From Eubacteriales bacterium (GTDB lineage: Bacteria; Bacillota; Clostridia; Oscillospirales; CAG-272): a DNA stretch of 64,000 nucleotides. Positions within the stretch are counted from its first letter, which is position 1. The number at the start of each line of letters is the position of its first letter. The position numbers and the translations under genes are program-made. The DNA is taken from NCBI GenBank assembly GCA_045612385.1, contig JAZKYZ010000064.1:196-64195 (forward strand), read 5' to 3'. Below, piece by piece: positions 5,937 through 44,595 of the stretch. A model generated the notes under the pieces. That model was not told where the DNA came from. It worked only from the letters and a program-made list of their open reading frames with translations, and did no database searches.

Positions 5937-6034
5937 AGTACAATCTCCTTTTTTTGTTTTATAGTTGTTATATTTTGAATTTTATCACATTTACAGGGAT
6001 ATGTCAATACTTTAGGAAGTATATTCCAAAGTAA

Positions 6035-6346
6035 GGCGAATATACCTACACCCTGCGTCTAACAAGCAAGCTTGTCGAACTTCGGGTGGGGTATGCGAAC
6101 CTTCGCATACGTAAAACGTATGCAAGGTCGAATCTGGAGGGTAGACAAAAAAAGAGAAGCACCGTTTTGGTGCTTGACCGAAAGGGTTTTCGCCTGAGGC
6201 GAATATACCCACACCCTGCGTCTGACAAGCGAGCTTGTCGAACTTCGGGTGGGGTATGCGAACCTTCGCATACGTAAAACGTATGCAAGGTCGAATCTGG
6301 AGGGTAGACCAAAAAAGAGAGGCACCTATTTGGTGCCTCTCTTTTT
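6035..6346. repeat. Two tandem ~163-bp units immediately 3' of tRNA-Arg
   Basis: GGCGAATATACC...GGTATGCGAACCTTCGCATACGTAAAACGTATGCAAGGTCGAATCTGGAGGGTAGAC starts at 6035 and again at 6198. Each copy ends in an A-run plus a GCACC/GGTGC hairpin. Confidence 0.9.
6311..6346 (-). terminator. Intrinsic (bidirectional) terminator after tRNA-Arg
   Basis: AAAAAAGAGAGGCACC-TATTT-GGTGCCTCTCTTTTTT lies directly adjacent to the tRNA CCA end. Confidence 0.8.
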
Positions 6347-6423
6347 TGGCCTACCCGAAAGGATTCGAACCTTCGGCCTTCAGAGTCGGAGTCTGACGCG
6401 CTATCCAGCTGTGCCACGGGTAG
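6347..6423 (-). tRNA. tRNA-Arg (anticodon CCG)
   Basis: Hand-folded cloverleaf. Acceptor CTACCCG/CGGGTAG, anticodon stem TCAGA/TCTGA with loop CTCCGAC, T-arm GAAGG-TTCGAAT-CCTTT, encoded CCA. Confidence 0.85.
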
Positions 6424-6438
6424 ATGGAATGCTATAAT

Positions 6439-15569: not shown

Positions 15570-16055
15570 TTGAAGGAAGAATCTACAACGGAATCCAGTT
15601 TTGATCACCTTCCTACACAGGAAGAATTGCTCGCATCTTACACACGAACCAAAAAAGCAGACCCGACCTCGACGGAATATGAACGAATCCTCGTTCGTCC
15701 CTCGTTACATATCATAAGGACGTGTCTTTTCGTTTTGGCAAGCGTCGCTGTCGCAGTCTTGCTTGCAACGCTCACTTATCTGCTATGGGAAAGTGCGCTT
15801 AATGCAATTTTGGTCGGTGTCGCTGTTCTCATCCTTTTGTTGCTTGTATTTTTAAAGCGCATCCTGATATGGCTGATTTTGGCATATCAGCGATTTGCTC
15901 CCGATAAGGTACGGAATCGTTGCCGATATGAGCCCTCCTGCTCACAATACACGATTCTGTCGATCAAAAAATACGGAGTCATCAAAGGATTTACAAAAGG
16001 TCTGAAACGCTGGCACAGTTGTAAGCCACCGAACGGTGGATTCGACCTGCCTTAA
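15570..16055 (+). CDS. yidD: YidD-family membrane protein insertion efficiency factor with a long N-terminal TM extension
   Basis: C-terminal RCRYEPSCSQYTILSIKKYGVIKG...RWHSCKP is the YidD signature. TTG start 3 nt after the upstream stop, with an AAGGAAGAG RBS. Confidence 0.7.
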   Translation: MKEESTTESSFDHLPTQEELLASYTRTKKADPTSTEYERILVRPSLHIIRTCLFVLASVAVAVLLATLTYLLWESALNAILVGVAVLILLLLVFLKRILIWLILAYQRFAPDKVRNRCRYEPSCSQYTILSIKKYGVIKGFTKGLKRWHSCKPPNGGFDLP

Positions 16056-16059
16056 TTAA

Positions 16060-16103
16060 GAAACAAGAAAACCAAGTCTCTCGGCTTGGTTTTCTTGTTT
16101 TTC
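16060..16103 (+). terminator. Intrinsic terminator after yidD-like gene
   Basis: AACAAGAAAACCAAG...CTTGGTTTTCTTGTT followed by TTTTC. Confidence 0.75.
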
Positions 16104-16376
16104 AGGTTTTCAAACATAAGAAACTGGTAAGTCATTATGTTAACAAAACGAACCCTTTACTTATCAATGTGCTCCATAGTGCATTTTACACAGTCGAAAT
16201 TTTCTAGTGCGTCCACACCGAAAGGGCTGATGATATACCAGTAAAAAAGTGCAACTTGTAAAAGGGTACTTCGGTCAGGCGATGATTAACAAGGCGCACG
16301 CCAACGGCAGCATTTGTAACGATTAGATTTTAAAACTGTCCTTTAGAGTATCTCCCTATAGGATACGACTTTTTTC

Positions 16377-16653
16377 GTGCGGACCATGTCGCTCGTTAAG
16401 AAAACAGTTGATAACTGTTTTTAGAGCGAAGACCGAGAACTATGTTCGAGGTCTGTCCCGTCGGAGCCCAAGCAAAAAGAGCACCACAAGGGTGTTTTTT
16501 AGTGCGGACGATGTCGCTCGTTAAGAAAACAGTTGATAACTGTTTTTAGTGCGAAGACCGAAGACTATGTATGAGGTCTGTCCCGTCGGAGCCCAAGCAA
16601 AAAGAGCACCACAAGGGTGCTCTTTAGTGCTTGGTGCGGACGACGGGACTTGA
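16377..16653. repeat. Two tandem 125-bp units plus a terminal 22-nt tRNA-Leu 3' fragment
   Basis: Units start at 16377 and 16502 with GTGCGGAC(C/G)ATG (tRNA-Leu 3'-end-like). Each ends with the AAAAAGAGCACC-ACAA-GGGTG hairpin. A third start at 16632 is the perfect tRNA 3' end copy. Confidence 0.9.
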
Positions 16654-16752
16654 TTCTCCTCGCGAACTGCGCTCGTCGGTCAGTCGCGGCTCTGACAGTC
16701 CACCGGACTGTCATTCACTACCGCTCCCCTTCAAGTCCCCTCATCCAAACCA

Positions 16753-16785
16753 CACAAAAACACCCTCCGAAAATCGGAGGGTGTT
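16753..16785 (-). terminator. Intrinsic terminator downstream of the recombinase gene
   Basis: Minus strand reads ACACCCTCCG-ATTTT-CGGAGGGTGT followed by TTTTTGTG. Confidence 0.7.
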
Positions 16786-17059
16786 TCGCGTGGTGCACCA
16801 CTTTAAGCCTAAATTGAACCAAGTGTTCAGTTTGGGCTTTTTGCTTTTCTTATGGCTTTTTCGACGTCGGTGCTGACGGCGGTTTATGCCGCGAAAGACT
16901 CTTGACACGAGTAAGGGGGTGTGGTAGGCTTCATGCCATAGGCAAACAAACAGCCCCTCGGGGCTGGGTGGTTGGCTTCTTTGCCTTGCACCCACACTCC
17001 CGAGAGGCTCGTGTCAAGAGTACCGTGGAATAAATAGCCGTTAGCTTAATGTATGTGAG

Positions 17060-18538
17060 TTACCCCACATACATTTCAAGCTCCATTGTTTGTGCGGTGT
17101 ATATGCTAATAAAGCCTTTATAAAAAGAAAAGCCCTGACTTTCGTCAGAGCCGTTCTTAATGGGGCTATTGATGTAAATTTCAATTCTGTCATTATAAAG
17201 CACTAATTCTTTGATGAAAAGACTAACTATCATAGTAGCTTCAAGCATTAATGCTTCTTCGTAGTATTCACGGATAATGCTTTCGGGTACTTTTACAGCT
17301 GTTTTACTCTTTTCTATAAGCAATTCACGCTCTAACGCCTCTTGCTGTTCTTCAAGCTCGTGTAAGCGTTTTTTAGTGGTCTTTGAAACTATGCCTTGTT
17401 CAATAGCAGCCATAAGGTTATCTAAAGCAGTATCTATCTTGGATTTTTCTCTTGCAATTGTTTTCACTTTGGGATTATCGGTACAGTATTTATCTTGCAA
17501 TTTGAGCAGATTTTTCACGATTCCATTAAGCGTTTGCGGTTTAGAAAATTCTCGTGTAATAGCCGTTACGATTGCTTCTTCCAAGGCTTCTTTTGAGTGA
17601 ATTGCTTGCTCACAGCCGTTGTGATATACCTTTCTTCCGAGGCATTTATAATAACGCTTTATCTCTCCGTTTCTTGCCGTTCCCGTGTCGGAGCTGATAG
17701 GATGTCCGCAATATCCGCATCTCATTTTATGGCGAAATAGATATACAGTCTTTATGCTACGTTTACCGCCCTCGTTTTCTTTAGACTTTGCTCGTACAGC
17801 TTCAAATGTATGTGTAGGCACGATTTGAGGATACATATTATCTACTCTCTCGTCACCGTGGTAGTAAACACCGGAGTATTTCTTGTTTTTAAGTATGCTG
17901 TATATGGTATTTTTAGCGAATGGCTTTCCCTTGTAAAGTACGCCCTTTGCCGTTAATGCCTTTATAATATCCTTTACAAATACGCCGATAGAGTATTGTT
18001 CAAATATGAACCTTACTGTTTCGGCTTTTTCTTCGTCTATAAGTATTTTCTTATCGACAACCTTATATCCGTATGGCAATCCACCGCCTTGGTAATGTCC
18101 TTTAGCTCTATTCTCTCGCATACCTCTTTTTACTTTTTGAGATAAGTCGGCGGAGTAATATTGATTCATACCTTCAAGTAAACTTTCAAGTATAATTCCT
18201 TCGGGCGTATCGGGGATATTTTCCATAGCGGACAATACCTTTACGCCATTTTTCTTTAGCGTATTCTTATGTATGGTAGCTTCGTATTTGTTTCTTGAAA
18301 ATCTGTCGAGCTTATACACAAGAACGTATGTCCATTCTTTTCTTGCGCTATCTCTTATCATACGCTGAAAATCTGGGCGCATATCATTCGTTCCCGTCAT
18401 AGCTCTGTCGATGTACTTTGCAAGAATAAGAATATCTTTAGCTCTTGCAAATTCCTCGCATACTCGAAGCTGACCTTCGATAGATTGTTCAGTTTGGCTG
18501 TCACTTGAATAACGTGCATAGATTACTGCTGTTTTCAT
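17060..18538 (-). CDS. Large serine recombinase
   Basis: MKTAVIYARYSSDSQ... (resolvase catalytic Ser region), recombinase domain, zinc-ribbon CGYCGHPISS...YYKC and a coiled-coil C-terminus. AAAGGAG RBS precedes ATG 18538. Confidence 0.9.
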   Translation of the reverse strand: MKTAVIYARYSSDSQTEQSIEGQLRVCEEFARAKDILILAKYIDRAMTGTNDMRPDFQRMIRDSARKEWTYVLVYKLDRFSRNKYEATIHKNTLKKNGVKVLSAMENIPDTPEGIILESLLEGMNQYYSADLSQKVKRGMRENRAKGHYQGGGLPYGYKVVDKKILIDEEKAETVRFIFEQYSIGVFVKDIIKALTAKGVLYKGKPFAKNTIYSILKNKKYSGVYYHGDERVDNMYPQIVPTHTFEAVRAKSKENEGGKRSIKTVYLFRHKMRCGYCGHPISSDTGTARNGEIKRYYKCLGRKVYHNGCEQAIHSKEALEEAIVTAITREFSKPQTLNGIVKNLLKLQDKYCTDNPKVKTIAREKSKIDTALDNLMAAIEQGIVSKTTKKRLHELEEQQEALERELLIEKSKTAVKVPESIIREYYEEALMLEATMIVSLFIKELVLYNDRIEIYINSPIKNGSDESQGFSFYKGFISIYTAQTMELEMYVG

Positions 18539-18749
18539 TTTGGAATCTCCTTTTTTCTTTAGAAATTTGTCTTTCGGCAGGAGCGACCAAAACGGAAATG
18601 AAGGCGAGGTCAAGGAAATAGGCGAAAATATTGTATTTTAGGCGGCTATATAAAAATCATCAGCAATATTTTCACCCCTTTACCTCGGCGGCGTTTTCGT
18701 TTAAGCTCCACAACCGGCGAAAGATAAATTGTTTTTATGTCTACAGTTA

Positions 18750-18896
18750 TTACGGCGTATCTTCTTTGTTATCATCGTGAAAGAGATCTATAATGCGAGT
18801 AAGTAATGCGTTATAAAAAGCGTTCTGCTCGGCTTCGCTAAACTGCTTAATATCCATCTCATCGCATATAGTAATTTCGGGCGTTTCGTTTCTCAC
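18750..18896 (-). CDS. Possible 48-aa acidic protein upstream of the recombinase
   Basis: GGAGG, 7 nt, GTG. Translates VRNETPEITICDEMDIKQFSEAEQNAFYNALLTRIIDLFHDDNKEDTP. Not in the ORF track (under 60 aa). Confidence 0.35.
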   Translation of the reverse strand: MRNETPEITICDEMDIKQFSEAEQNAFYNALLTRIIDLFHDDNKEDTP

Positions 18897-19490
18897 TCGC
18901 TAACCTCCTTTTTGCTTGGTATAAAGAGGTTAACATATAAATCCCATCAAATCCACCTCTCAAGCTTTCTGCTTTTGCGATGCTACGGCACAGTTTTTAT
19001 TCGTCATTTTACGAGGGTGATTATTGAACTTACAGCGGTGGACAGTTTTAACCATTAGAGCCAAAACCATTGAAAATTATACTGAATTTTTATATACTGA
19101 TTATGACGTTTCGGATAACAACAACTTATTTGACAAGCAAATAAAAAAGCCCCTCTTTCGAGGAGCAAAAAACATAAAACCGTGACGGAGCAAACGCAAA
19201 AAGTTTAATCCACCAATTTAGCCGCCGACGGATAAAGCGGAGGTCTGTGCAAGCGGCTTAGCGCACAGCTCCGCTTCCGTTCGGCTTTGGTGGATTTCTT
19301 TTCTTGTCCGTTTGTTTTGCGCGAGGGCGTGTGCTTGTCTGGCGGCGCGAAGCGACGCCACTTGTATCAAGACAAGCACACGCCCTGCGCTCACGCTTAA
19401 ATCGTAGACTTATTTTTGTGGACGGATTTGATTCATATCATACCGATGAATTAGAGCATAAAAGCAATAGCGACGAGCCTAAGCTCGCCG

Positions 19491-19772
19491 CTAAAAACAG
19501 ATGTTTGCCGAATTTACGGAGTTGTTTTCTGTACATTGCTGCACAGGGAGGCAAAAGTTCACCTCCTGGGCATAATCACCATTCTGTGAATATTCGACAG
19601 TTGCAGGTGTGTGGCTGTCGACTTGGGGTGTATAGGCAATTATAGCAAGAGCCCATATTGTTATAAATGCGCTGAGGAAAATGGCCACAATTTTTAATAC
19701 TCGTCTTGTGGTTGATTTTTTTGAACGATCAATTTTTCTTTTTTTCGCCTTGTTAGGTTTGAAACTAAACAA
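19491..19772 (-). CDS. Doubtful small membrane-anchored protein
   Basis: Basic N-terminus plus one TM, but a TTG start without a clear RBS, embedded in structured non-coding sequence. Confidence 0.25.
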   Translation of the reverse strand: MFSFKPNKAKKRKIDRSKKSTTRRVLKIVAIFLSAFITIWALAIIAYTPQVDSHTPATVEYSQNGDYAQEVNFCLPVQQCTENNSVNSANICF

Positions 19773-20016
19773 TGCACCAACTAACTGTTTTATTAGCTCG
19801 CCGTATAACTAGGTCGCCGCAGCCTATAAGGACCGAGGGAGGATTGTATTATTCATACCTTCTCAACTTTGTTACACCGCTTGCGCGGAGGCTACGTCAT
19901 TTCTGCGTAGCTCTTGCGGTCACCCGCAAGTTCAGACTGTGCCTTCATCCGCATGGGATGCTCCGTGTCCAGTCGTTACACCTTCCCTAAAAGGGCTTGG
20001 CTCGGCATTTTCTGCT

Positions 20017-20655
20017 TTATATTATATATATATCTTCTTGCTGATATTCGATGTTTTTATTATACCCATATCTATTATAGTCGATAGACCAAATACATCC
20101 ATCTTCATCAGTACATTGTATAGAAAGATGCCTTGGGGAAGTTCCCTTATCTCCGCTCATATAAAAACATTGCAGTTCATTTTCAAAGTTATAGTAATTA
20201 TCGCTATATTTGCAATCCAAATTAATTTTGACCTGTTGTTTCGAAGTCAACAGTGCACATACGGCATCACCGCAAAAATGAATATCTGTTAAATCTCGAT
20301 TTCCAACATTAGTTATCTTGATTATATAGGCTTGTTCCTCATAATCCAAAACTTCTATACTCAAAACAACTTTAGGTCTTATTTCATACTTTCTACGCTC
20401 TTCTTCATTTTTTTGTTGCCAGAAATACAATAAGAAAGATGAAAATATTCCTAACGCAACTCCATAGTATGAAAGAGTGTCGATTTCAAGCGTTTTTTGA
20501 AACAATTCGGATTTTTCAGCCAAAAGACAAAATATGAAAGGCATTGATAAAATTACAACCACACAAAAAATTGTGAATAATGTTCTATAATTTCCAATAA
20601 TCCATTTTTTAATTTTCGGTACGATGCTAAACTTGTTTTTCGTTTCTTTTTTCAT
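20017..20655 (-). CDS. Hypothetical 2-TM protein with a soluble C-terminal domain
   Basis: 212 aa with two hydrophobic helices followed by a beta-rich Cys-containing domain. No family recognised. Confidence 0.55.
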   Translation of the reverse strand: MKKETKNKFSIVPKIKKWIIGNYRTLFTIFCVVVILSMPFIFCLLAEKSELFQKTLEIDTLSYYGVALGIFSSFLLYFWQQKNEEERRKYEIRPKVVLSIEVLDYEEQAYIIKITNVGNRDLTDIHFCGDAVCALLTSKQQVKINLDCKYSDNYYNFENELQCFYMSGDKGTSPRHLSIQCTDEDGCIWSIDYNRYGYNKNIEYQQEDIYII

Positions 20656-20705
20656 AATTAATATACCATGATGGAGCCGCCACGAGGGCGGCTCTGTTTT
20701 GTTGT

Positions 20706-23700
20706 TTAAAGTTTAATCCACATAGCTGGAACAACACCCTCGCCATCACTTATGGACGAATATCCATTATCATCAACAGTACCTGTGTTATAAACTACCA
20801 TTACAGAGTTTATATAATTTTTATCAGGTGAGCGAAGCCACCAATCTCCGTATCCATAACTTGATTCAGCCGTAGAAATCCAAGTACCAATTGCACGAGC
20901 GTAATCGGTAGTCTGCATTTTTCGGTTTGTATTACTTGCTAAGTCGTAATCGCTCTTTATTGCTTCTCGATAAGATAGTAGAAATACCTTGTCCTCGGTA
21001 TTTTCACAAGCATATGAATTATTGGAACTTTCTGTACTAGCGGCACTATTGTCGACAGTGGTGACTTGTATCAATTCTTTTTGAATTTCTCCAAAAGCTT
21101 TGTTATAAAATTCGTTATTAAGCCACTGCCTAACATCACTATCTTTATAATTGTTGTTTTTATCTTCATCGTAAGAATGGTCGTCTATAATACTGTCGCA
21201 AAGTATAAATGCTGATTCTCCATTTTCCGATAGAACTCTCCAACGAATTGGCTCTACCTTGAAATAATACGTTTCGCCTGCTGTTACCGCTTCATCATTA
21301 GAGAATTTATAGCCCAAGTTATACTGAGTAGAAACTATTTTAGCATAGTAAAAACCATCACTTCCCATATAATATCCTCGTTCATCTTTGGTGTTTGTTA
21401 TTTGAACACCGTCGGATTTAATGGTTTGAGGATATTCCCCGAAATATATGTATTCTCCAACTCTATAATAGCCACGCCAATAATACACCTCTAAAACCAA
21501 ACTTCCGTCACCGCTGATTTTACCGCTTAATTTACTAATGCCATTGTTAACATTTAATCCGTCAAATGTTTTTGATATTACTTGTGCCGTTGCGTCAGTT
21601 GCTCCAAAAAGATACTGCGTATCTACAAGCTCATATCCTGTTCTATCATTGGTTTGCTTGTAGTGCTTAACAATATAAGGAGTATCTTCATCTGCACTCC
21701 ACTTAGCAGTGTAAGTGACATTCTTTTCTGCATTGAAAGTGAAGGTCAGCGTATCGCAAACTTTAGTATCGCCTTCATACCAACCAATGAAGGTATATCC
21801 GGGATTTGAAGAAGCAACAAGTTTTACTTCACTTCCGATTTCATAATTGCCCCCATCGCTAACAAATCCTGCTTTGGGATTTTCCGTGGCGGTTGATATC
21901 GAGCAAGTATTAACAGCTATCCACATAGAAGGAATGACACCTATACACTCGGTGGTTGGTTTGCCCGATCCATCATAAATGTTTCCATTGCTGTATAGCA
22001 TTAGGACAAGTTCGCAGCTTGCGCCCGATGCTCCGGGAGAACTAGTCCATGATGCGTAGGCATAGTTGGTTCCCGACGAAAGTTCAAGTCCAATAGCTTT
22101 CGAAAAATCAGTAGCCATCCAATTATCTCTATCGGAATTATTTGGGAAATATTTGCGCAGATCCGAAGCTGAAATCAAAGACACTTTATTCTGATTTACA
22201 ATTTGAACGATCTGTTGTTGTAAAGATGTAAATGTCGTATTGAAAAATTCTTGTGTTAACCAACTGCGTATCTCGCTTGTTTCGTAGTTGTTATTATACT
22301 TACTATCATCGAATCTTCGACTATCTATTACACTATCGCACAGAATAAAGGCATTGCCATCTTTTTCGGAAAGAATTCTCCATCTAATCGGTTCGGCCTT
22401 GAAATAGTAGATATTGCCTTCTACAATATATTCCCCGGAAGAAAATTGATAATATTTGTCATAGCGAGGACCTGCCACAATTTTCGCATAATAATATCCG
22501 TCCGACCCAAGATAATATCCACGATTATCTACAGTTGTCGTTATTGTGACATAATCCGCCTTTAATGACTGAGGATATTCTCCGAAGTATATATATTGTC
22601 CTTCGCGATAGTATAGATCCAAGGTATAATAAACGTTGAGTACCAAAGTGCCATCACCATTAATATTGCCGGTCAATACACTCTTTTCAGCGTTGAAGAG
22701 ATATCCGTCTAATTCATCAGCAACAAATGTAGCTAAAGTATCGGTTGTTCCAAGTAAAGTTATTGAGTTAAACAATACCGAATTATATCCCGCCTTAGTC
22801 ATATTATCTTTATAGAAATTGACAGTATACGGAGTATCTTCATCCGCGCTCCACTTAGCAGTATAAGTAACGTTTTTTTCTGCATTGAAAGTGAAGGTCA
22901 GCGTGTCACATACTTTAGTATCACCCTCATACCAACCAATGAAGGTGTAACCGGGATTTGAAGAAGCAACAAGGCTTACAGAATTTTCGTAAGCATATTT
23001 GCCGCCCGAGGTTACAGTACCAGCCTTTTTGTTTTCTACGGAAGAGTTAATTGTATAAACGTCTCTCGTGTAGTAGACTTTGAGAACAAGTTTGCCATTA
23101 CCTACTATATTGCCACTAATTACGCTATTTGTATTTGTGAATGTAAAGTGTGCATACTCAGAGATAACAGCATTTGCGGTGGTATCAGTTATTCCTTCGA
23201 GAACGACAGTATCCACCTTGTCATATCCTGTTTTATTCTTATTTTCAAGATAATACTCAACAGTGAACTTCGTGTCATCGTTGGCAGACCATTTTGCCGT
23301 AAGAGTAACCGCATTTTCAACGGTAAACTTGTAGCTTTCAGTTTCGCAAACAAGAGAGTTTCCTGCATACCAACCGAGGAAGGTGTAGCCGGGGTTTGTG
23401 GTAGCAGTTACGGTGATTGTTTTGCCGTAACGATAAGCGCTTCCGCTTGTTACACTACCAGCCTTTGCATTCATCGCACGAGTGGTAACGGTATAACTAC
23501 TTCTCGTATAGTAAATTTTAAGGACTGCATCGCCTTCACCGTCGATATTTCCGCTTGCATTACTGATTGCGGCATAATAGGTGAAATGGGGATAGCTGTT
23601 TATCGTTGCGGTTGCGAGAGCATCTGTTGTTCCCATAAGAATATCGCTGTGGATAAGGTAGTAATCGTTGTTATCGATATTCTGATGATAGTACTCTACG

Positions 23701-26201
23701 GTATAGAAGGTATCCTCGTTTGCCGACCACTTTGCAACAAGAGAAATGTTTCTCGTAGGCATAAACGTATATGCAAGGTCTCCGCTGACGAGAGCGTTTC
23801 CTTCATACCATCCGAGCCAAGTATATCCGGCTTTAACGGTTGCGGTTACAGTGATTTCGTTACCATAAACTTTGGTAGCTCCCGACGTAACAGAACCGCC
23901 CTTTGTGTTTTCCGCAGAGGTTGTTACGGTGTAGCTGTTTCTGTCATAGTAAACCTTGAGAACGAGAGTTCCTTCGCCATCAATATTTCCGCTTGTAGTA
24001 CTCTTTGACGAATTGAACTTAAAGTGTTCAAAGGTCTTGGGACTTACCGATGCGGTTGTATCGGTTGTGCCTGCAAGATTTTCGGTTTCCAAGTTAAGTA
24101 TATCATAGCCGTTTTTGTTGGAATTTTCGAAGTAATATTCTACCTTGTAGGGAGTATTTGTGTTTGCCTTGAAGTTAGCAACGAAGCTAAGGTTCTCGGT
24201 TCTACCCAAAATCTTTACGTTAAGGGTAGGCTCTGTAACTCCCTCGTAAGTCCAACCAAGGAAGGTGTATCCTATCTTTGTAGGATTGATAAGCGTAAAT
24301 TCGCTTTCGATGGTATAGGTTGTGGGGTTCTTACCGTCAACTGTACCGCCGTTAAGATTATACTCGATATCGTAAAGAACGAGATCCCAAACGGCAACTA
24401 AGTTCATATCGGTGGTAAGATTATATTTACCGCCTGTTACAAAGTTTGTTCCGTCAGACCAGCCCGTAAAGGCGTGTCCTGCGTATTCGGGCGTGGGAAG
24501 AATTATTTCTGCATCATAATCAATCGGGATTTCGGTTTTGTCCACAGTTCCGCCAATAGCATCAAGATAAATCTTGAAGGAATCAGCTTTCCAATTTGCG
24601 GTAAAGGAAAGCGCACCTATAGAGTCGTTAATGCTGACGTTAAGAGTGGGCTCGGTAACTCCATCATAAGTCCAGCCGAGGAAGGTATAACCCGTTCTTG
24701 TAGGATTGATAAGCATAAATTCACTCTCGATGGTGTAAGTCGTTGGATTTGTTCCATCTACAATACCACCGTTAAGCGTATAGCCGATATCATAGCTTAC
24801 AGCATCCCATTTTGCAACAAGATTTACGTTCTTGCTTGTTTTCCAAGCACCGCTTACGTAAGGAGTTGTATCCTCATACCAACCTGCAAAGCTATATCCC
24901 GTCTTTGTGGGGGTAGGGAGCGTAATATTTGCATCATAGGTAGCAGTTTCATTTTCATAGCTTTCGTTGCCACCGTTGGTGTTAAAGGTTACGGTATAGG
25001 TGTTAGCCACCCAATTTGCAACGTAGCTTCTGTTGCCAATGCTTCCACTTGCGATCTCAAGAGCAAGCGTAGGTTTGTTAACGTATGTTCCCGTCCAACC
25101 GAGGAAGGTGTAACCGGTCTTTTCGGGAGTTGAAAGCGTAATGTTTTCGCTTACAAAATTGTATGTTGTGGGATTGGCGGTAGAGAGTGTGCCACCGTCA
25201 AGGTCGTATTCGATTTCATAGTTAATAAGCGACCATTTTGCTACAAGGGTAACGTCGGAATCGCCCTTCCAGATACCGTTTCCAAAAAGGTCGTTGCCAA
25301 GGTACCAGCCGTCAAAACTATATCCCGTGCGAGTAGGTATTTCAAGCGTATAGTTAATATCATAGACAACGCCTGTTTCCTCGTGTGCAACAGTACCGCC
25401 GTTTACATCGTAGGTAATTACGTACTCGTTTGCGAGCCAAATGGCAGAAATTGTTTCGTTTTTAGTGATAGGCGCAGTAAAATCATAACTCCAGCCCGAA
25501 AGAGTATATCCCTTTTTATAGGTATCTGGAGCTGACACAAGAGAGCCTTCTTCAATAATCACGGCTTCTGCAGTAGTGCCACCGTCTGTGTCAAACATTA
25601 CAGTGTACATAGGTCTACGACGGATATTCAACTTATACATCTCGGATTGACCGTTCTCAGCCGTAACGAGAGCGTAGTAAACGTTGTCACCGATTTCCAA
25701 AGGAGCAACCTTGCTGGAAATAGTAGTGTTTCCGTAAATATCGCTCGTTAAAGTCCAAGAGCTTTTAGAGTTTATAGTTACCTTTGTACCGAGCGAAAAT
25801 GCCTCGGTTGAGTTAGAAACCGTTATGGAATACTCGGTGTCGGATATCTTAGTAAATCCATCAAACTCAGCCTCAACGCCTTGAACCGATTCCGAACTCG
25901 TCCATTTAGCATAAACGGACATATTTTCGGAGAGCGGAGCATCAAGGAGAGAATTGGCGGTGAAGGGCTTGTTCCAAACGTCCTTATCCCAATACCAACC
26001 GTCGAAGACGTGCCCTTCTTTAATAGGATCATTCGGTATCTTGATGGTTTCCTTTCCGCTTGTGTTAACGGTTGCGTAAATTTCACCGTCAACAACAAAG
26101 TCAACCTTGAATTCGACTTTTCCGCAAGATGCAAGTCCGAGCGTTATGCCAAGGACGAGTGTCAAGCAAAAAAGAGCAGACAGTAGCTTTTTCATAAGCA
26201 A
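20706..26201 (-). CDS. Giant surface lipoprotein (1831 aa) with many Listeria-Bacteroides repeats and two GEYPQ...EPIRWR (DUF6273-like) domains
   Basis: Signal peptide plus lipobox LASCGK. More than 15 copies of the GY(T/S)FxGWY...W repeat. Two YIYFGEYPQ...EPIRWR(I/V)LS modules. Confidence 0.9.
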   Translation of the reverse strand: MLMKKLLSALFCLTLVLGITLGLASCGKVEFKVDFVVDGEIYATVNTSGKETIKIPNDPIKEGHVFDGWYWDKDVWNKPFTANSLLDAPLSENMSVYAKWTSSESVQGVEAEFDGFTKISDTEYSITVSNSTEAFSLGTKVTINSKSSWTLTSDIYGNTTISSKVAPLEIGDNVYYALVTAENGQSEMYKLNIRRRPMYTVMFDTDGGTTAEAVIIEEGSLVSAPDTYKKGYTLSGWSYDFTAPITKNETISAIWLANEYVITYDVNGGTVAHEETGVVYDINYTLEIPTRTGYSFDGWYLGNDLFGNGIWKGDSDVTLVAKWSLINYEIEYDLDGGTLSTANPTTYNFVSENITLSTPEKTGYTFLGWTGTYVNKPTLALEIASGSIGNRSYVANWVANTYTVTFNTNGGNESYENETATYDANITLPTPTKTGYSFAGWYEDTTPYVSGAWKTSKNVNLVAKWDAVSYDIGYTLNGGIVDGTNPTTYTIESEFMLINPTRTGYTFLGWTYDGVTEPTLNVSINDSIGALSFTANWKADSFKIYLDAIGGTVDKTEIPIDYDAEIILPTPEYAGHAFTGWSDGTNFVTGGKYNLTTDMNLVAVWDLVLYDIEYNLNGGTVDGKNPTTYTIESEFTLINPTKIGYTFLGWTYEGVTEPTLNVKILGRTENLSFVANFKANTNTPYKVEYYFENSNKNGYDILNLETENLAGTTDTTASVSPKTFEHFKFNSSKSTTSGNIDGEGTLVLKVYYDRNSYTVTTSAENTKGGSVTSGATKVYGNEITVTATVKAGYTWLGWYEGNALVSGDLAYTFMPTRNISLVAKWSANEDTFYTVEYYHQNIDNNDYYLIHSDILMGTTDALATATINSYPHFTYYAAISNASGNIDGEGDAVLKIYYTRSSYTVTTRAMNAKAGSVTSGSAYRYGKTITVTATTNPGYTFLGWYAGNSLVCETESYKFTVENAVTLTAKWSANDDTKFTVEYYLENKNKTGYDKVDTVVLEGITDTTANAVISEYAHFTFTNTNSVISGNIVGNGKLVLKVYYTRDVYTINSSVENKKAGTVTSGGKYAYENSVSLVASSNPGYTFIGWYEGDTKVCDTLTFTFNAEKNVTYTAKWSADEDTPYTVNFYKDNMTKAGYNSVLFNSITLLGTTDTLATFVADELDGYLFNAEKSVLTGNINGDGTLVLNVYYTLDLYYREGQYIYFGEYPQSLKADYVTITTTVDNRGYYLGSDGYYYAKIVAGPRYDKYYQFSSGEYIVEGNIYYFKAEPIRWRILSEKDGNAFILCDSVIDSRRFDDSKYNNNYETSEIRSWLTQEFFNTTFTSLQQQIVQIVNQNKVSLISASDLRKYFPNNSDRDNWMATDFSKAIGLELSSGTNYAYASWTSSPGASGASCELVLMLYSNGNIYDGSGKPTTECIGVIPSMWIAVNTCSISTATENPKAGFVSDGGNYEIGSEVKLVASSNPGYTFIGWYEGDTKVCDTLTFTFNAEKNVTYTAKWSADEDTPYIVKHYKQTNDRTGYELVDTQYLFGATDATAQVISKTFDGLNVNNGISKLSGKISGDGSLVLEVYYWRGYYRVGEYIYFGEYPQTIKSDGVQITNTKDERGYYMGSDGFYYAKIVSTQYNLGYKFSNDEAVTAGETYYFKVEPIRWRVLSENGESAFILCDSIIDDHSYDEDKNNNYKDSDVRQWLNNEFYNKAFGEIQKELIQVTTVDNSAASTESSNNSYACENTEDKVFLLSYREAIKSDYDLASNTNRKMQTTDYARAIGTWISTAESSYGYGDWWLRSPDKNYINSVMVVYNTGTVDDNGYSSISDGEGVVPAMWIKL

Positions 26202-26210
26202 TACCTCCTA

Positions 26211-26246
26211 AAAATACAAAAAGTGCGCCCGCAAAGCGAGCGCACC
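26211..26246 (-). terminator. Leader terminator (possible attenuator) just upstream of the giant gene RBS
   Basis: Minus strand reads GTGCGC-TCGCTTTGCGG-GCGCAC followed by TTTTTGTATTTTT, then AGGAGG and the ATG. Confidence 0.6.
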
Positions 26247-26375
26247 CCATTATGTACCTCACCTTGCCGCGACGCAATTTTCATAATATCTTAACTCAAG
26301 TATATGAAAAGGTGGGAGTACTAAAATGGCATAGTACACCCTTGAGTTAAGAATATTAAATTACGTCGCACTCTA

Positions 26376-26404
26376 ATTATAGCACACTTTTACAAAAAAG
26401 TAAA
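26376..26404 (-). promoter_or_regulatory. Sigma-A-type promoter for the giant surface protein gene
   Basis: Minus strand reads TTTACT, 17 nt, TATAAT. Confidence 0.55.
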
Positions 26405-26475
26405 TATTTTCAGGCGATTTATTACGCGCAAAAAAAGCGCAAGTCAAAACCTTTCGGTTCAACTTACGCTCATAG

Positions 26476-26560
26476 TGGTGCGGACGACGGGACTTGAACC
26501 CACATGAATTGCTTCACTGGAACCTGAAACCAGCGCGTCTGCCAATTCCGCCACGTCCGC
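26476..26560 (-). tRNA. tRNA-Leu (anticodon CAG)
   Basis: Acceptor GCGGACG/CGTCCGC, anticodon loop TTCAGGT, long variable arm TGAA-GCAA-TTCA, T-loop TTCAAGT, encoded CCA. Confidence 0.85.
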
Positions 26561-44519: not shown

Positions 44520-44595
44520 TGGTGCTCCTGCGGAGAATCGAACTCCGGACACCTTGATTAAAAGTCAAGTGCTCTACCAGCTGAGCTACAGGGGC
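44520..44595 (-). tRNA. tRNA-Lys (anticodon UUU)
   Basis: GCCCCTGTAGCTCAGCTGGTAGAGCACTTGACTTTTAATCAAGG...GGAGTTCGATTCTCCGCAGGAGCACCA. Canonical D and T arms. Confidence 0.9.

Follow-up and report, generated by a model that had tools for sequence, protein, structure and literature searches.

Two 125-bp tandem units in the window (the whole 64,000-nucleotide stretch of DNA that was analysed) carry fragments of the 3' end of tRNA-Leu and lie roughly 10 kb from the tRNA-Leu gene, in a genus of uncultured gut and rumen Clostridia. tRNA gene ends are classic landing sites of islands and prophages, and what follows them tends to be written off as trailer or scar. We asked what these units are and how they came to lie where they do.

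The array and the tRNA-Leu(CAG) locus

The window holds three tRNA genes, all on the minus strand: tRNA-Arg(CCG) at 6347-6423, tRNA-Leu(CAG) at 26476-26560 and tRNA-Lys(UUU) at 44520-44595. The features from the array to the tRNA-Leu gene are as follows.

16375-16470, minus strand: B-type cassette, distal copy (unit 1, B1), covariance-model score 102.9 bits
16471-16499, minus strand: terminator-like hairpin between the units, a 5'-truncated copy, read directly within the 125-bp period
16500-16595, minus strand: B-type cassette, proximal copy (unit 2, B2), with direct arm CGTCCGCAC, covariance-model score 103.6 bits
16596-16631, minus strand: terminator-like hairpin AAAGAGCACC/GGTGCTCTTT, the centre of a long palindrome
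16632-16746, minus strand: unit X, a cassette distinct from the B type, identified by sequence and by homologues directly behind tRNA-Leu in G025, G010 and metagenome contigs
16757-16790, minus strand: CGCG and an intrinsic terminator, from a terminator scan (14-pair stem and T run, 16787-16757)
16791-16800, unstranded: island/chromosome junction, the perfect palindrome TGGTGCACCA, from sequence and the break in a DNA contig
16801-26475, minus strand: island of about 9.7 kb, where similarity to relatives breaks off exactly at the tRNA CCA and is found again from about 16760
17060-18613, minus strand: large serine recombinase gene (Pfam Resolvase, Recombinase and Zn_ribbon_recom)
20706-26201: gene for an 1831-aa Listeria-Bacteroides-repeat surface protein (Flg_new repeats)
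26476-26560, minus strand: tRNA-Leu(CAG), the owner of the array (ARAGORN and Rfam RF00005)

Using Tandem Repeats Finder, we found a period of 125 with 2.1 copies and 93% matches at 16370-16630. On the plus strand, unit 1 starts with GTGCGGACCA (16377) and unit 2 with GTGCGGACGA (16502). Both starts were originally predicted to be tRNA-Leu 3'-terminal sequence in tRNA orientation, and they agree with the plus-strand reading of the tRNA-Leu 3' end at 9 of 10 and 10 of 10 positions, respectively, in the orientation of the tRNA-Leu gene. The nested hairpin described at the same time, CGCTC..AAAACAGTT-GAT-AACTGTTTT..GAGCG, was found in both units, with one mismatch in unit 2. The inverted, degenerate copy of the tRNA-Leu end said to close each unit (GTCCCGTCG plus GAGCCCA) has 9 exact bases and diverges after them, and the AAAGAGCACC..GGTGCTCTTT hairpin does follow this inverted piece, the distal copy being 5'-truncated. 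The exact 22-nt copy of the tRNA-Leu end occupies 16632-16653, a correction of its coordinates.

Read in tRNA direction from 16800 to 16375, the locus runs palindrome, CGCG and terminator, unit X, hairpin, B2, truncated hairpin, B1. Unit 1 consists of an inverted arm TGGGCTCCGACGGGAC, a hairpin P1, the nested hairpin P2/P3, GACAT and a direct arm GGTCCGCAC, and its core is 93% identical to that of unit 2. Unit X has an inverted arm (16731-16746), a strongly conserved core formed by GAAGGGGAGCGGTAGTGAAT, a hairpin and AGAGCCGCG.., and a direct arm that is the exact 22-nt tRNA-Leu 3' end. The long palindrome around the hairpin at 16596-16631 is made of the unit X direct arm and the unit 2 inverted arm. 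Both this hairpin and the one at 16471-16499 are terminator-like by eye, and the consensus terminator scan called neither. Since the inverted arms of the two B copies in the window are partly degenerate (TGG-GCTC-CGACGGGAC against an ideal TGG-TGCGGA-CGACGGGAC), these copies may have lost their activity. We rejected the possibility that a unit is a tRNA gene or pseudogene, because ARAGORN and RF00005 find no cloverleaf in 16370-16800.

Was this array once the downstream flank of tRNA-Leu, displaced by the island, as the original prediction held? Two island-free relatives, both other species of the same genus, have a terminator directly behind tRNA-Leu(CAG). After it comes, in G025, a unit X about 85-90% like that of the window (by eye) and, in G010, an X-like unit, a second unit and, in third place, a unit homologous to the 125-bp one (87% across 87 nt). 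A further genome, G153, has unit X, terminator and B unit in the order of the window. Together with the junction at 16791-16800, these relatives support the view that the array is the native downstream flank of tRNA-Leu(CAG), apparently shifted about 9.7 kb by the island, and the CGCG and terminator next to the junction would be the original trailer of the gene. The predicted empty island site would read tRNA-Leu ..CCGCACCA-CGCG-terminator-unit X.

The support for a native flank is cross-species and junction evidence, because no island-free genome or contig of the same species was found among the genomes, metagenome contigs and sequencing runs searched, and because the relatives fetched share no conserved gene order around tRNA-Leu(CAG) and have flanks that cannot be aligned at the DNA level. 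The flanking proteins of the window have no match beside the tRNA-Leu(CAG) loci of these relatives. A metagenome contig scan with the unit X core returned 5 contigs, none of the window's species, and four sequencing runs (each with at most 9% of the sampled words) yielded no assembled contig that skips the island. Contigs from these runs cover only conserved tRNA and unit X parts, plus the break at 16791, and their missing B-unit cover counts as no evidence. In metagenome contigs L013 and L015, unit X copies are broken at the same point, right after GGTAGTGAAT, and continue into unrelated DNA.

The island carries its own terminator adjoining tRNA-Leu. At its other end, a gut metagenome DNA contig (run X3, record 25) is identical to the window over 16791-16907 and divergent beyond 16791, which places the breakpoint exactly at 16791. 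Homologues of the island recombinase are present in 46 of the 151 genomes of the genus that we searched, and at several of the 20 loci read the 3' flank of the recombinase is a hairpin, about five bases and TGGT.. (the complement of tRNA ..ACCA), at junctions with tRNA-Met, Glu and Ser. The window island has the same hairpin, followed by AAAG-TGGTGCACCA, so that its junction falls on the perfect palindrome, which shares GCACCA with the tRNA-Leu 3' end. These comparisons place the recombinase-side end of the island at the palindrome, and not at the 22-bp repeat, with a presumed crossover at the central GC of TGGTGCACCA. The 22-bp repeat is not the island's duplication, since it is the direct arm of unit X and unit X also lies behind island-free tRNA-Leu genes. 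We therefore rejected the 22-nt copy as an att repeat made by the resident recombinase, whose junction lies elsewhere.

Several observations concern the islands of this genus in their own right. Its large-serine-recombinase islands integrate at the CCA end of tRNA genes (Met, Glu, Ser and Leu; loci L063-L075), in either orientation; serine recombinases that target tRNA ends are unusual. Right after the recombinase stop lies a long-hairpin element of about 140 nt (about 16888-17024 of the window, minus strand, arms ACTCTTGACACGAG../..CTCGTGTCAAGAGT), which has no Rfam match and is kept behind recombinase homologues of 50-60% identity in L063, L065 and L067-L069. The string predicted for the excised-island junction, TGGTGCACCACTATGAG, matched five genomes; we took these matches as chance, since the exact one (G315) lies within coding sequence and none of the five loci has a tRNA, one locus having been read. 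A second island behind the B unit of G124, suggested by a similar terminator, was rejected, with no recombinase within 15 kb. In G074, two 3' halves of tRNA-Leu(CAG) starting from the anticodon loop (L042, 61-148 and 1370-1443) flank an ORF of about 290 residues. This pair looks like a classical anticodon-loop att duplication, at a tRNA that also bears B and X cassettes.

A cassette family behind tRNA genes

We ran a covariance model of the B unit over 151 genus genomes and over a sample of 150 further genomes from across the order. Full-length B units are present in 40 of the 151 genus genomes, at 1-6 copies each and often in tandem. Outside the genus, the model gave weak partial matches only, in 6 of the 150 genomes, and three of the five fetched adjoin Leu, Thr or Tyr tRNA genes. 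A scan of genome contigs with the hairpin P1 pattern returned 5 MAGs, all of the genus. We aligned 38 distinct B copies and limited statements on context to those with readable upstream sequence, all of which lie downstream of a tRNA gene and in its orientation. The host tRNAs are Leu(GAG), Leu(CAG), Gly(GCC) and one called Pro(GGG) with a Leu-type 3' end. Against Rfam at the gathering score, the whole window matches tRNAs only and the units have no match, and at E-value thresholds 16300-16700, 5980-6430, L016 and L017 show only tRNAs and chance hairpin look-alikes. Neither the array nor the unit X core has a match in phage and virus collections, and a full-text literature search found no description of the cassette family.

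The cassettes have a common layout. In tRNA direction, a terminator hairpin (T) is followed by an inverted copy (A'), a core and a direct copy (A), where A' is the inverted T-stem/acceptor 3' strand of the neighbouring tRNA and A is the acceptor 3' strand, usually with ACCA. The core is composed of two hairpins and the conserved single-stranded motifs ..CTAAAAAC.., ..TTTTCTTAACG.. and GACAT. Arrays with this layout read tRNA(A)-T-A'-core-A-T-A'-core-A. In B units, the direct arm comes after the invariant GACAT and usually equals the last 11 nt of the local tRNA, and the inverted arm, which is followed by an invariant AG, is complementary to the 3' strand of the T-stem and to part of the acceptor strand. 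When 16578-16657 is folded as DNA, this A-T-A' palindrome reaches -30 kcal/mol (z = -9.65).

This architecture recurs well beyond tRNA-Leu. Behind about a third to a half of the 39 tRNAs of the window genome come, in this order, a terminator, the tRNA's own 3' end as an inverted copy, a hairpin core and a direct copy, with one core type at Arg, Tyr, Ser, Leu(GAG) and other arrays, and unit X and the B type as further types. The arrays of tRNA-Arg and tRNA-Lys do share the architecture of the tRNA-Leu array, as first proposed. We compared cognate and non-cognate pairings for 38 tRNAs, omitting the conserved T-loop and CCA. For seven, the 140 nt downstream contain an inverted copy of the tRNA's own T-stem/acceptor strand with a score above the 99th percentile of non-cognate pairings (about 0.4 expected), and 13 score at least 15 for a cognate inverted copy, against a non-cognate 95th percentile of 14.

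In the tRNA-Arg and tRNA-Lys arrays of the window genome, the last unit is 3'-truncated. The tRNA-Lys(UUU) gene has a C3:A70 mismatch in the acceptor stem, which could be the product of a 3' strand brought by an incoming cassette. In another family of the order, L086 (1460-1640) has the same architecture behind tRNA-Leu(CAG), and the nested hairpin of the B type (GAGCG-TTAAGAAAACAGT..ACTGTTTTTAG-CTC) is reversed there.

The three core helices of the B units covary. In an alignment that was fitted to the structure of the covariance model and thus leans towards it, 95.4% of cells are paired, with changes on both sides in 19 of 26 pairs (144 cells). None of 500 shuffles reaches the observed value, and sliding the partners by one column leaves about 49% paired. 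In the core helices, 732 of 754 pairs (97%) are Watson-Crick, with 6 G-U against 4 A-C/C-A and no strand bias. Structured RNAs usually show far more wobble pairs. The absence of strand asymmetry and the scarcity of wobble pairs favour a hairpin that is selected or corrected at the DNA level, and point to a B-unit hairpin that fits DNA better than a typical RNA. A neutral palindrome-correcting process could also be the source of the near-lack of G-U.

Comparisons between loci show that the same cassette has moved between different tRNA genes. The third cassette behind tRNA-Leu(CAG) in G010 and the first behind tRNA-Leu(GAG) in G161 have terminator and core in common, 170 nt at 82%. Their cores are 96% identical and their arms differ, each fitting its own tRNA, while the 1.4-kb flanks have no similarity and nothing else is alike in 3 kb. 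The order of two cassette subtypes in G113 is the reverse of that in G126. G000 and G010 agree at 87% in the core and at 80% in the tRNA-Leu gene, with no similarity of the flanking genes detectable at the DNA or protein level. Tandem neighbours are often mutual closest relatives (93% in the window, 100% in G162 and G127), suggesting that the two units of the window are a recent duplication.

Proposed mobile DNA cassettes and competing explanations

We favour, with a little better than even confidence, the explanation that the two units are tandem copies of the B type, one member of a family of small DNA cassettes that encode no protein, build up directly behind tRNA genes and are mobile by recombination. 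Such cassettes would be non-autonomous mobile DNA that enters and exits by recombination inside the repeated tRNA-end segment A, and each incoming cassette would supply a fresh terminator, so that the tRNA is kept intact. As single strands, A-T-A' and A'-core-A are predicted to fold to hairpins whose stems rebuild a duplex tRNA end. The order A-terminator-A'-core-A is what a circular or tandem element recombining in A would leave. Alternatively, the same order could come from integration of a folded hairpin site (A:A' around the terminator), as in CTX phage or integron cassettes. The two local copies would then derive from a recent tandem duplication between A/terminator repeats, and the tRNA-Leu(CAG) array (terminator, X, B, B) would have been split from its gene by a large-serine-recombinase island at the ..GCACCA end. 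The A-T-A'-core-A order and the stable A-T-A' DNA fold are what make us favour mobile cassettes recombining in the tRNA-end repeat.

The window genome, 97.5% complete, encodes six recombinases of the tyrosine type and two of the serine type, together with one reverse transcriptase. No recombinase could be tied to the cassettes, and none of the six tyrosine recombinases adjoins the array. The single reverse-transcriptase gene (G000:C41:10895-11389, a 341-residue frame with RVT_1) has no tRNA nearby. A link between the island-type serine recombinase and B units was rejected, as the two occur together in 15 genomes where chance would give about 12. We saw neither an excised or circular cassette nor a within-species presence/absence polymorphism.

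The fit of the inverted arm A' to each new tRNA is not accounted for by simple recombination inside A. Fold-back copying across the terminator and a guide-like role of the arm are possibilities, and we considered wrong-orientation joining by a large serine recombinase (LSR) as a source of inverted arms. A rolling-hairpin concatemer was rejected, as the core is no palindrome itself and the orientation is always the same within the genus. More speculatively, and with little confidence, one may think of the inverted arm as a built-in address, with single-stranded DNA or RNA pairing with the tRNA 3' end to direct a recombinase, and a change of arm retargeting the cassette.

Could the units instead act as RNA? 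They might be RNA genes or cis-acting RNA parts, transcribed by read-through or on their own, with an acceptor-end-mimic stem (5' A' plus 3' A, ..GCACCA), serving as decoys, as processing or stability elements or as stacked terminators that insulate a convergent gene; we consider this unlikely. The folds are well supported and have conserved unpaired motifs, and the array sits between convergent genes, tRNA-Leu and a yidD-like gene. However, the 97% Watson-Crick helices have no G-U excess on either strand, Rfam holds no match, and the P2/P3 module is reversed behind tRNA-Leu in another family. Cassette type also varies between orthologous tRNAs of related species, indicating that no tRNA needs a particular cassette. 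An RNA role concerns mainly unit X. In contig L017, unit X is enclosed by tRNA-Leu(GAG) and tRNA-Leu(CAG) and no terminator intervenes; it would be co-transcribed there, with its 3' end freed by RNase P at the next tRNA. The unit X copy of G153 is preceded by a promoter-like TTGACA..TGTGATAT, whereas no promoter-like site is present in 16000-17100 and a terminator always precedes B units. RNA-library contigs cover unit X at 16631-16724 and leave the B units uncovered, and they are possibly DNA carry-over. Unit X may be transcribed into an RNA whose 3' end resembles that of a tRNA.

We regard it as improbable that the units are dead scars, that is, attR-type copies of tRNA 3' ends with remnant DNA of islands or prophages that targeted tRNAs one after another, as in tandem island arrays, and then decayed. 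The setting suits such an origin: the tRNA genes of this genus are busy integration sites, with serine-recombinase islands abutting tRNA ends in 46 of 151 genomes, tyrosine integrases adjoining tRNA-Ser and tRNA-Arg in the window genome and half-tRNA-Leu copies around the ORF of G074, and a direct tRNA-end copy closes each unit. Scars are expected to decay, yet the hairpins are kept by compensatory changes, and cores are 96-99% identical between species with arms re-fitted to each tRNA. An inverted arm is not a feature of att scars, and the arms are copies of 11-22 nt that lie upstream of the CCA end, the crossover point of the serine recombinase. The units have nothing in common with the ends of the resident island. 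Direct repeats of the kind that bound an att scar are present, and their interior, some 80 nt of hairpins that covary, has no counterpart anywhere in that island.

Local tandem duplication of a tRNA 3' end and trailer by slippage or unequal crossing-over, with no mobility or function, is very improbable as the whole story: two adjacent units at 93% identity with A/terminator repeats at their borders, and near-identical neighbours in the arrays of G162, G127 and G141, fit it well, but it accounts for copy number and not origin, and it is contradicted as a full account by the same core and terminator behind other tRNA genes with unrelated flanks in other genomes and by other cores with the same architecture at about a third to a half of the genome's tRNAs, so that it holds only for the step from one cassette to two.

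The sequence behind a tRNA here is a hairpin cassette, conserved and covarying, which passes from one tRNA gene to another with its ends re-fitted to each. If folded-hairpin or guided recombination proves true, the cassettes would offer a new means of directing DNA to tRNA genes and would supply repeated att-like sites that influence where islands insert; if the arm is indeed an address, they would be nucleic-acid-guided, protein-less passenger elements specific for tRNA ends. In such genomes, a direct tRNA-end repeat cannot be assumed to be the att duplication of an island, and the boundary of the island in this window is corrected to the TGGTGCACCA palindrome instead of the 22-bp repeat. This analysis contributes the B-type family with its distribution, the covariation confined to Watson-Crick pairs, the transfer of one cassette between different tRNAs and the corrected boundary.

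Comparison with known systems

The 178-bp repeats of E. coli tyrT are the source of rtT RNA (Rfam RF00391), and a model of slippage or unequal crossing-over has been proposed for them. Their position downstream of tyrT was reportedly described by Egan and Landy in 1978, Rossi et al. in 1981 and Bosl and Kersten in 1991. Like the cassettes, they are non-coding, stand in tandem immediately downstream of a tRNA gene and carry in every unit a direct copy of that tRNA's 3' end. Unlike the cassettes, they belong to one locus in one lineage and have neither an inverted arm nor a core common to different tRNA genes. RF00391 has no match here at the gathering score, and none at E<=10 over 16300-16700.

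The islands of tRNA and tmRNA genes, including CIMEs and tandem island arrays, also accrete at the tRNA 3' end with repeated direct copies of it, and their incoming unit restores the gene end and supplies a terminator. The cassettes differ in being about 125 bp, gene-less and unlike the resident island, with an extra inverted arm and a covarying core.

Integron attC sites and the attP of CTX phage are imperfect palindromes in which structure is kept over sequence, and CTX attP is a folded single strand. Integron cassettes and CTX likewise form arrays at a fixed chromosomal site, and A-loop-A'-body-A is the product of folded-hairpin integration. The cassettes display the attC-type combination of palindromic sites, conserved structure, variable sequence, arrays and shuffled order. 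In contrast to integrons, they are gene-less, no integrase, attI or promoter was identified here, and the palindrome arms copy the adjacent tRNA end and change with the tRNA.

Among known short elements, an IS110-type bridge-RNA element was rejected because the window genome has no DEDD transposase (PF01548), and REP/REPIN or IS200/IS605-derived elements (PATE, TnpB guide RNA) were rejected because a cognate Y1 transposase/RAYT (PF01797) and TnpB (PF07282) are absent from it. REP/REPIN, Correia elements and MITEs are, like the cassettes, short intergenic hairpin repeats, multiple per genome and often near terminators. Whereas theirs are fixed termini at dispersed sites, which led us to reject a MITE, the arms of the cassettes vary with the tRNA, and the readable copies all lie behind tRNAs with termini templated by them.
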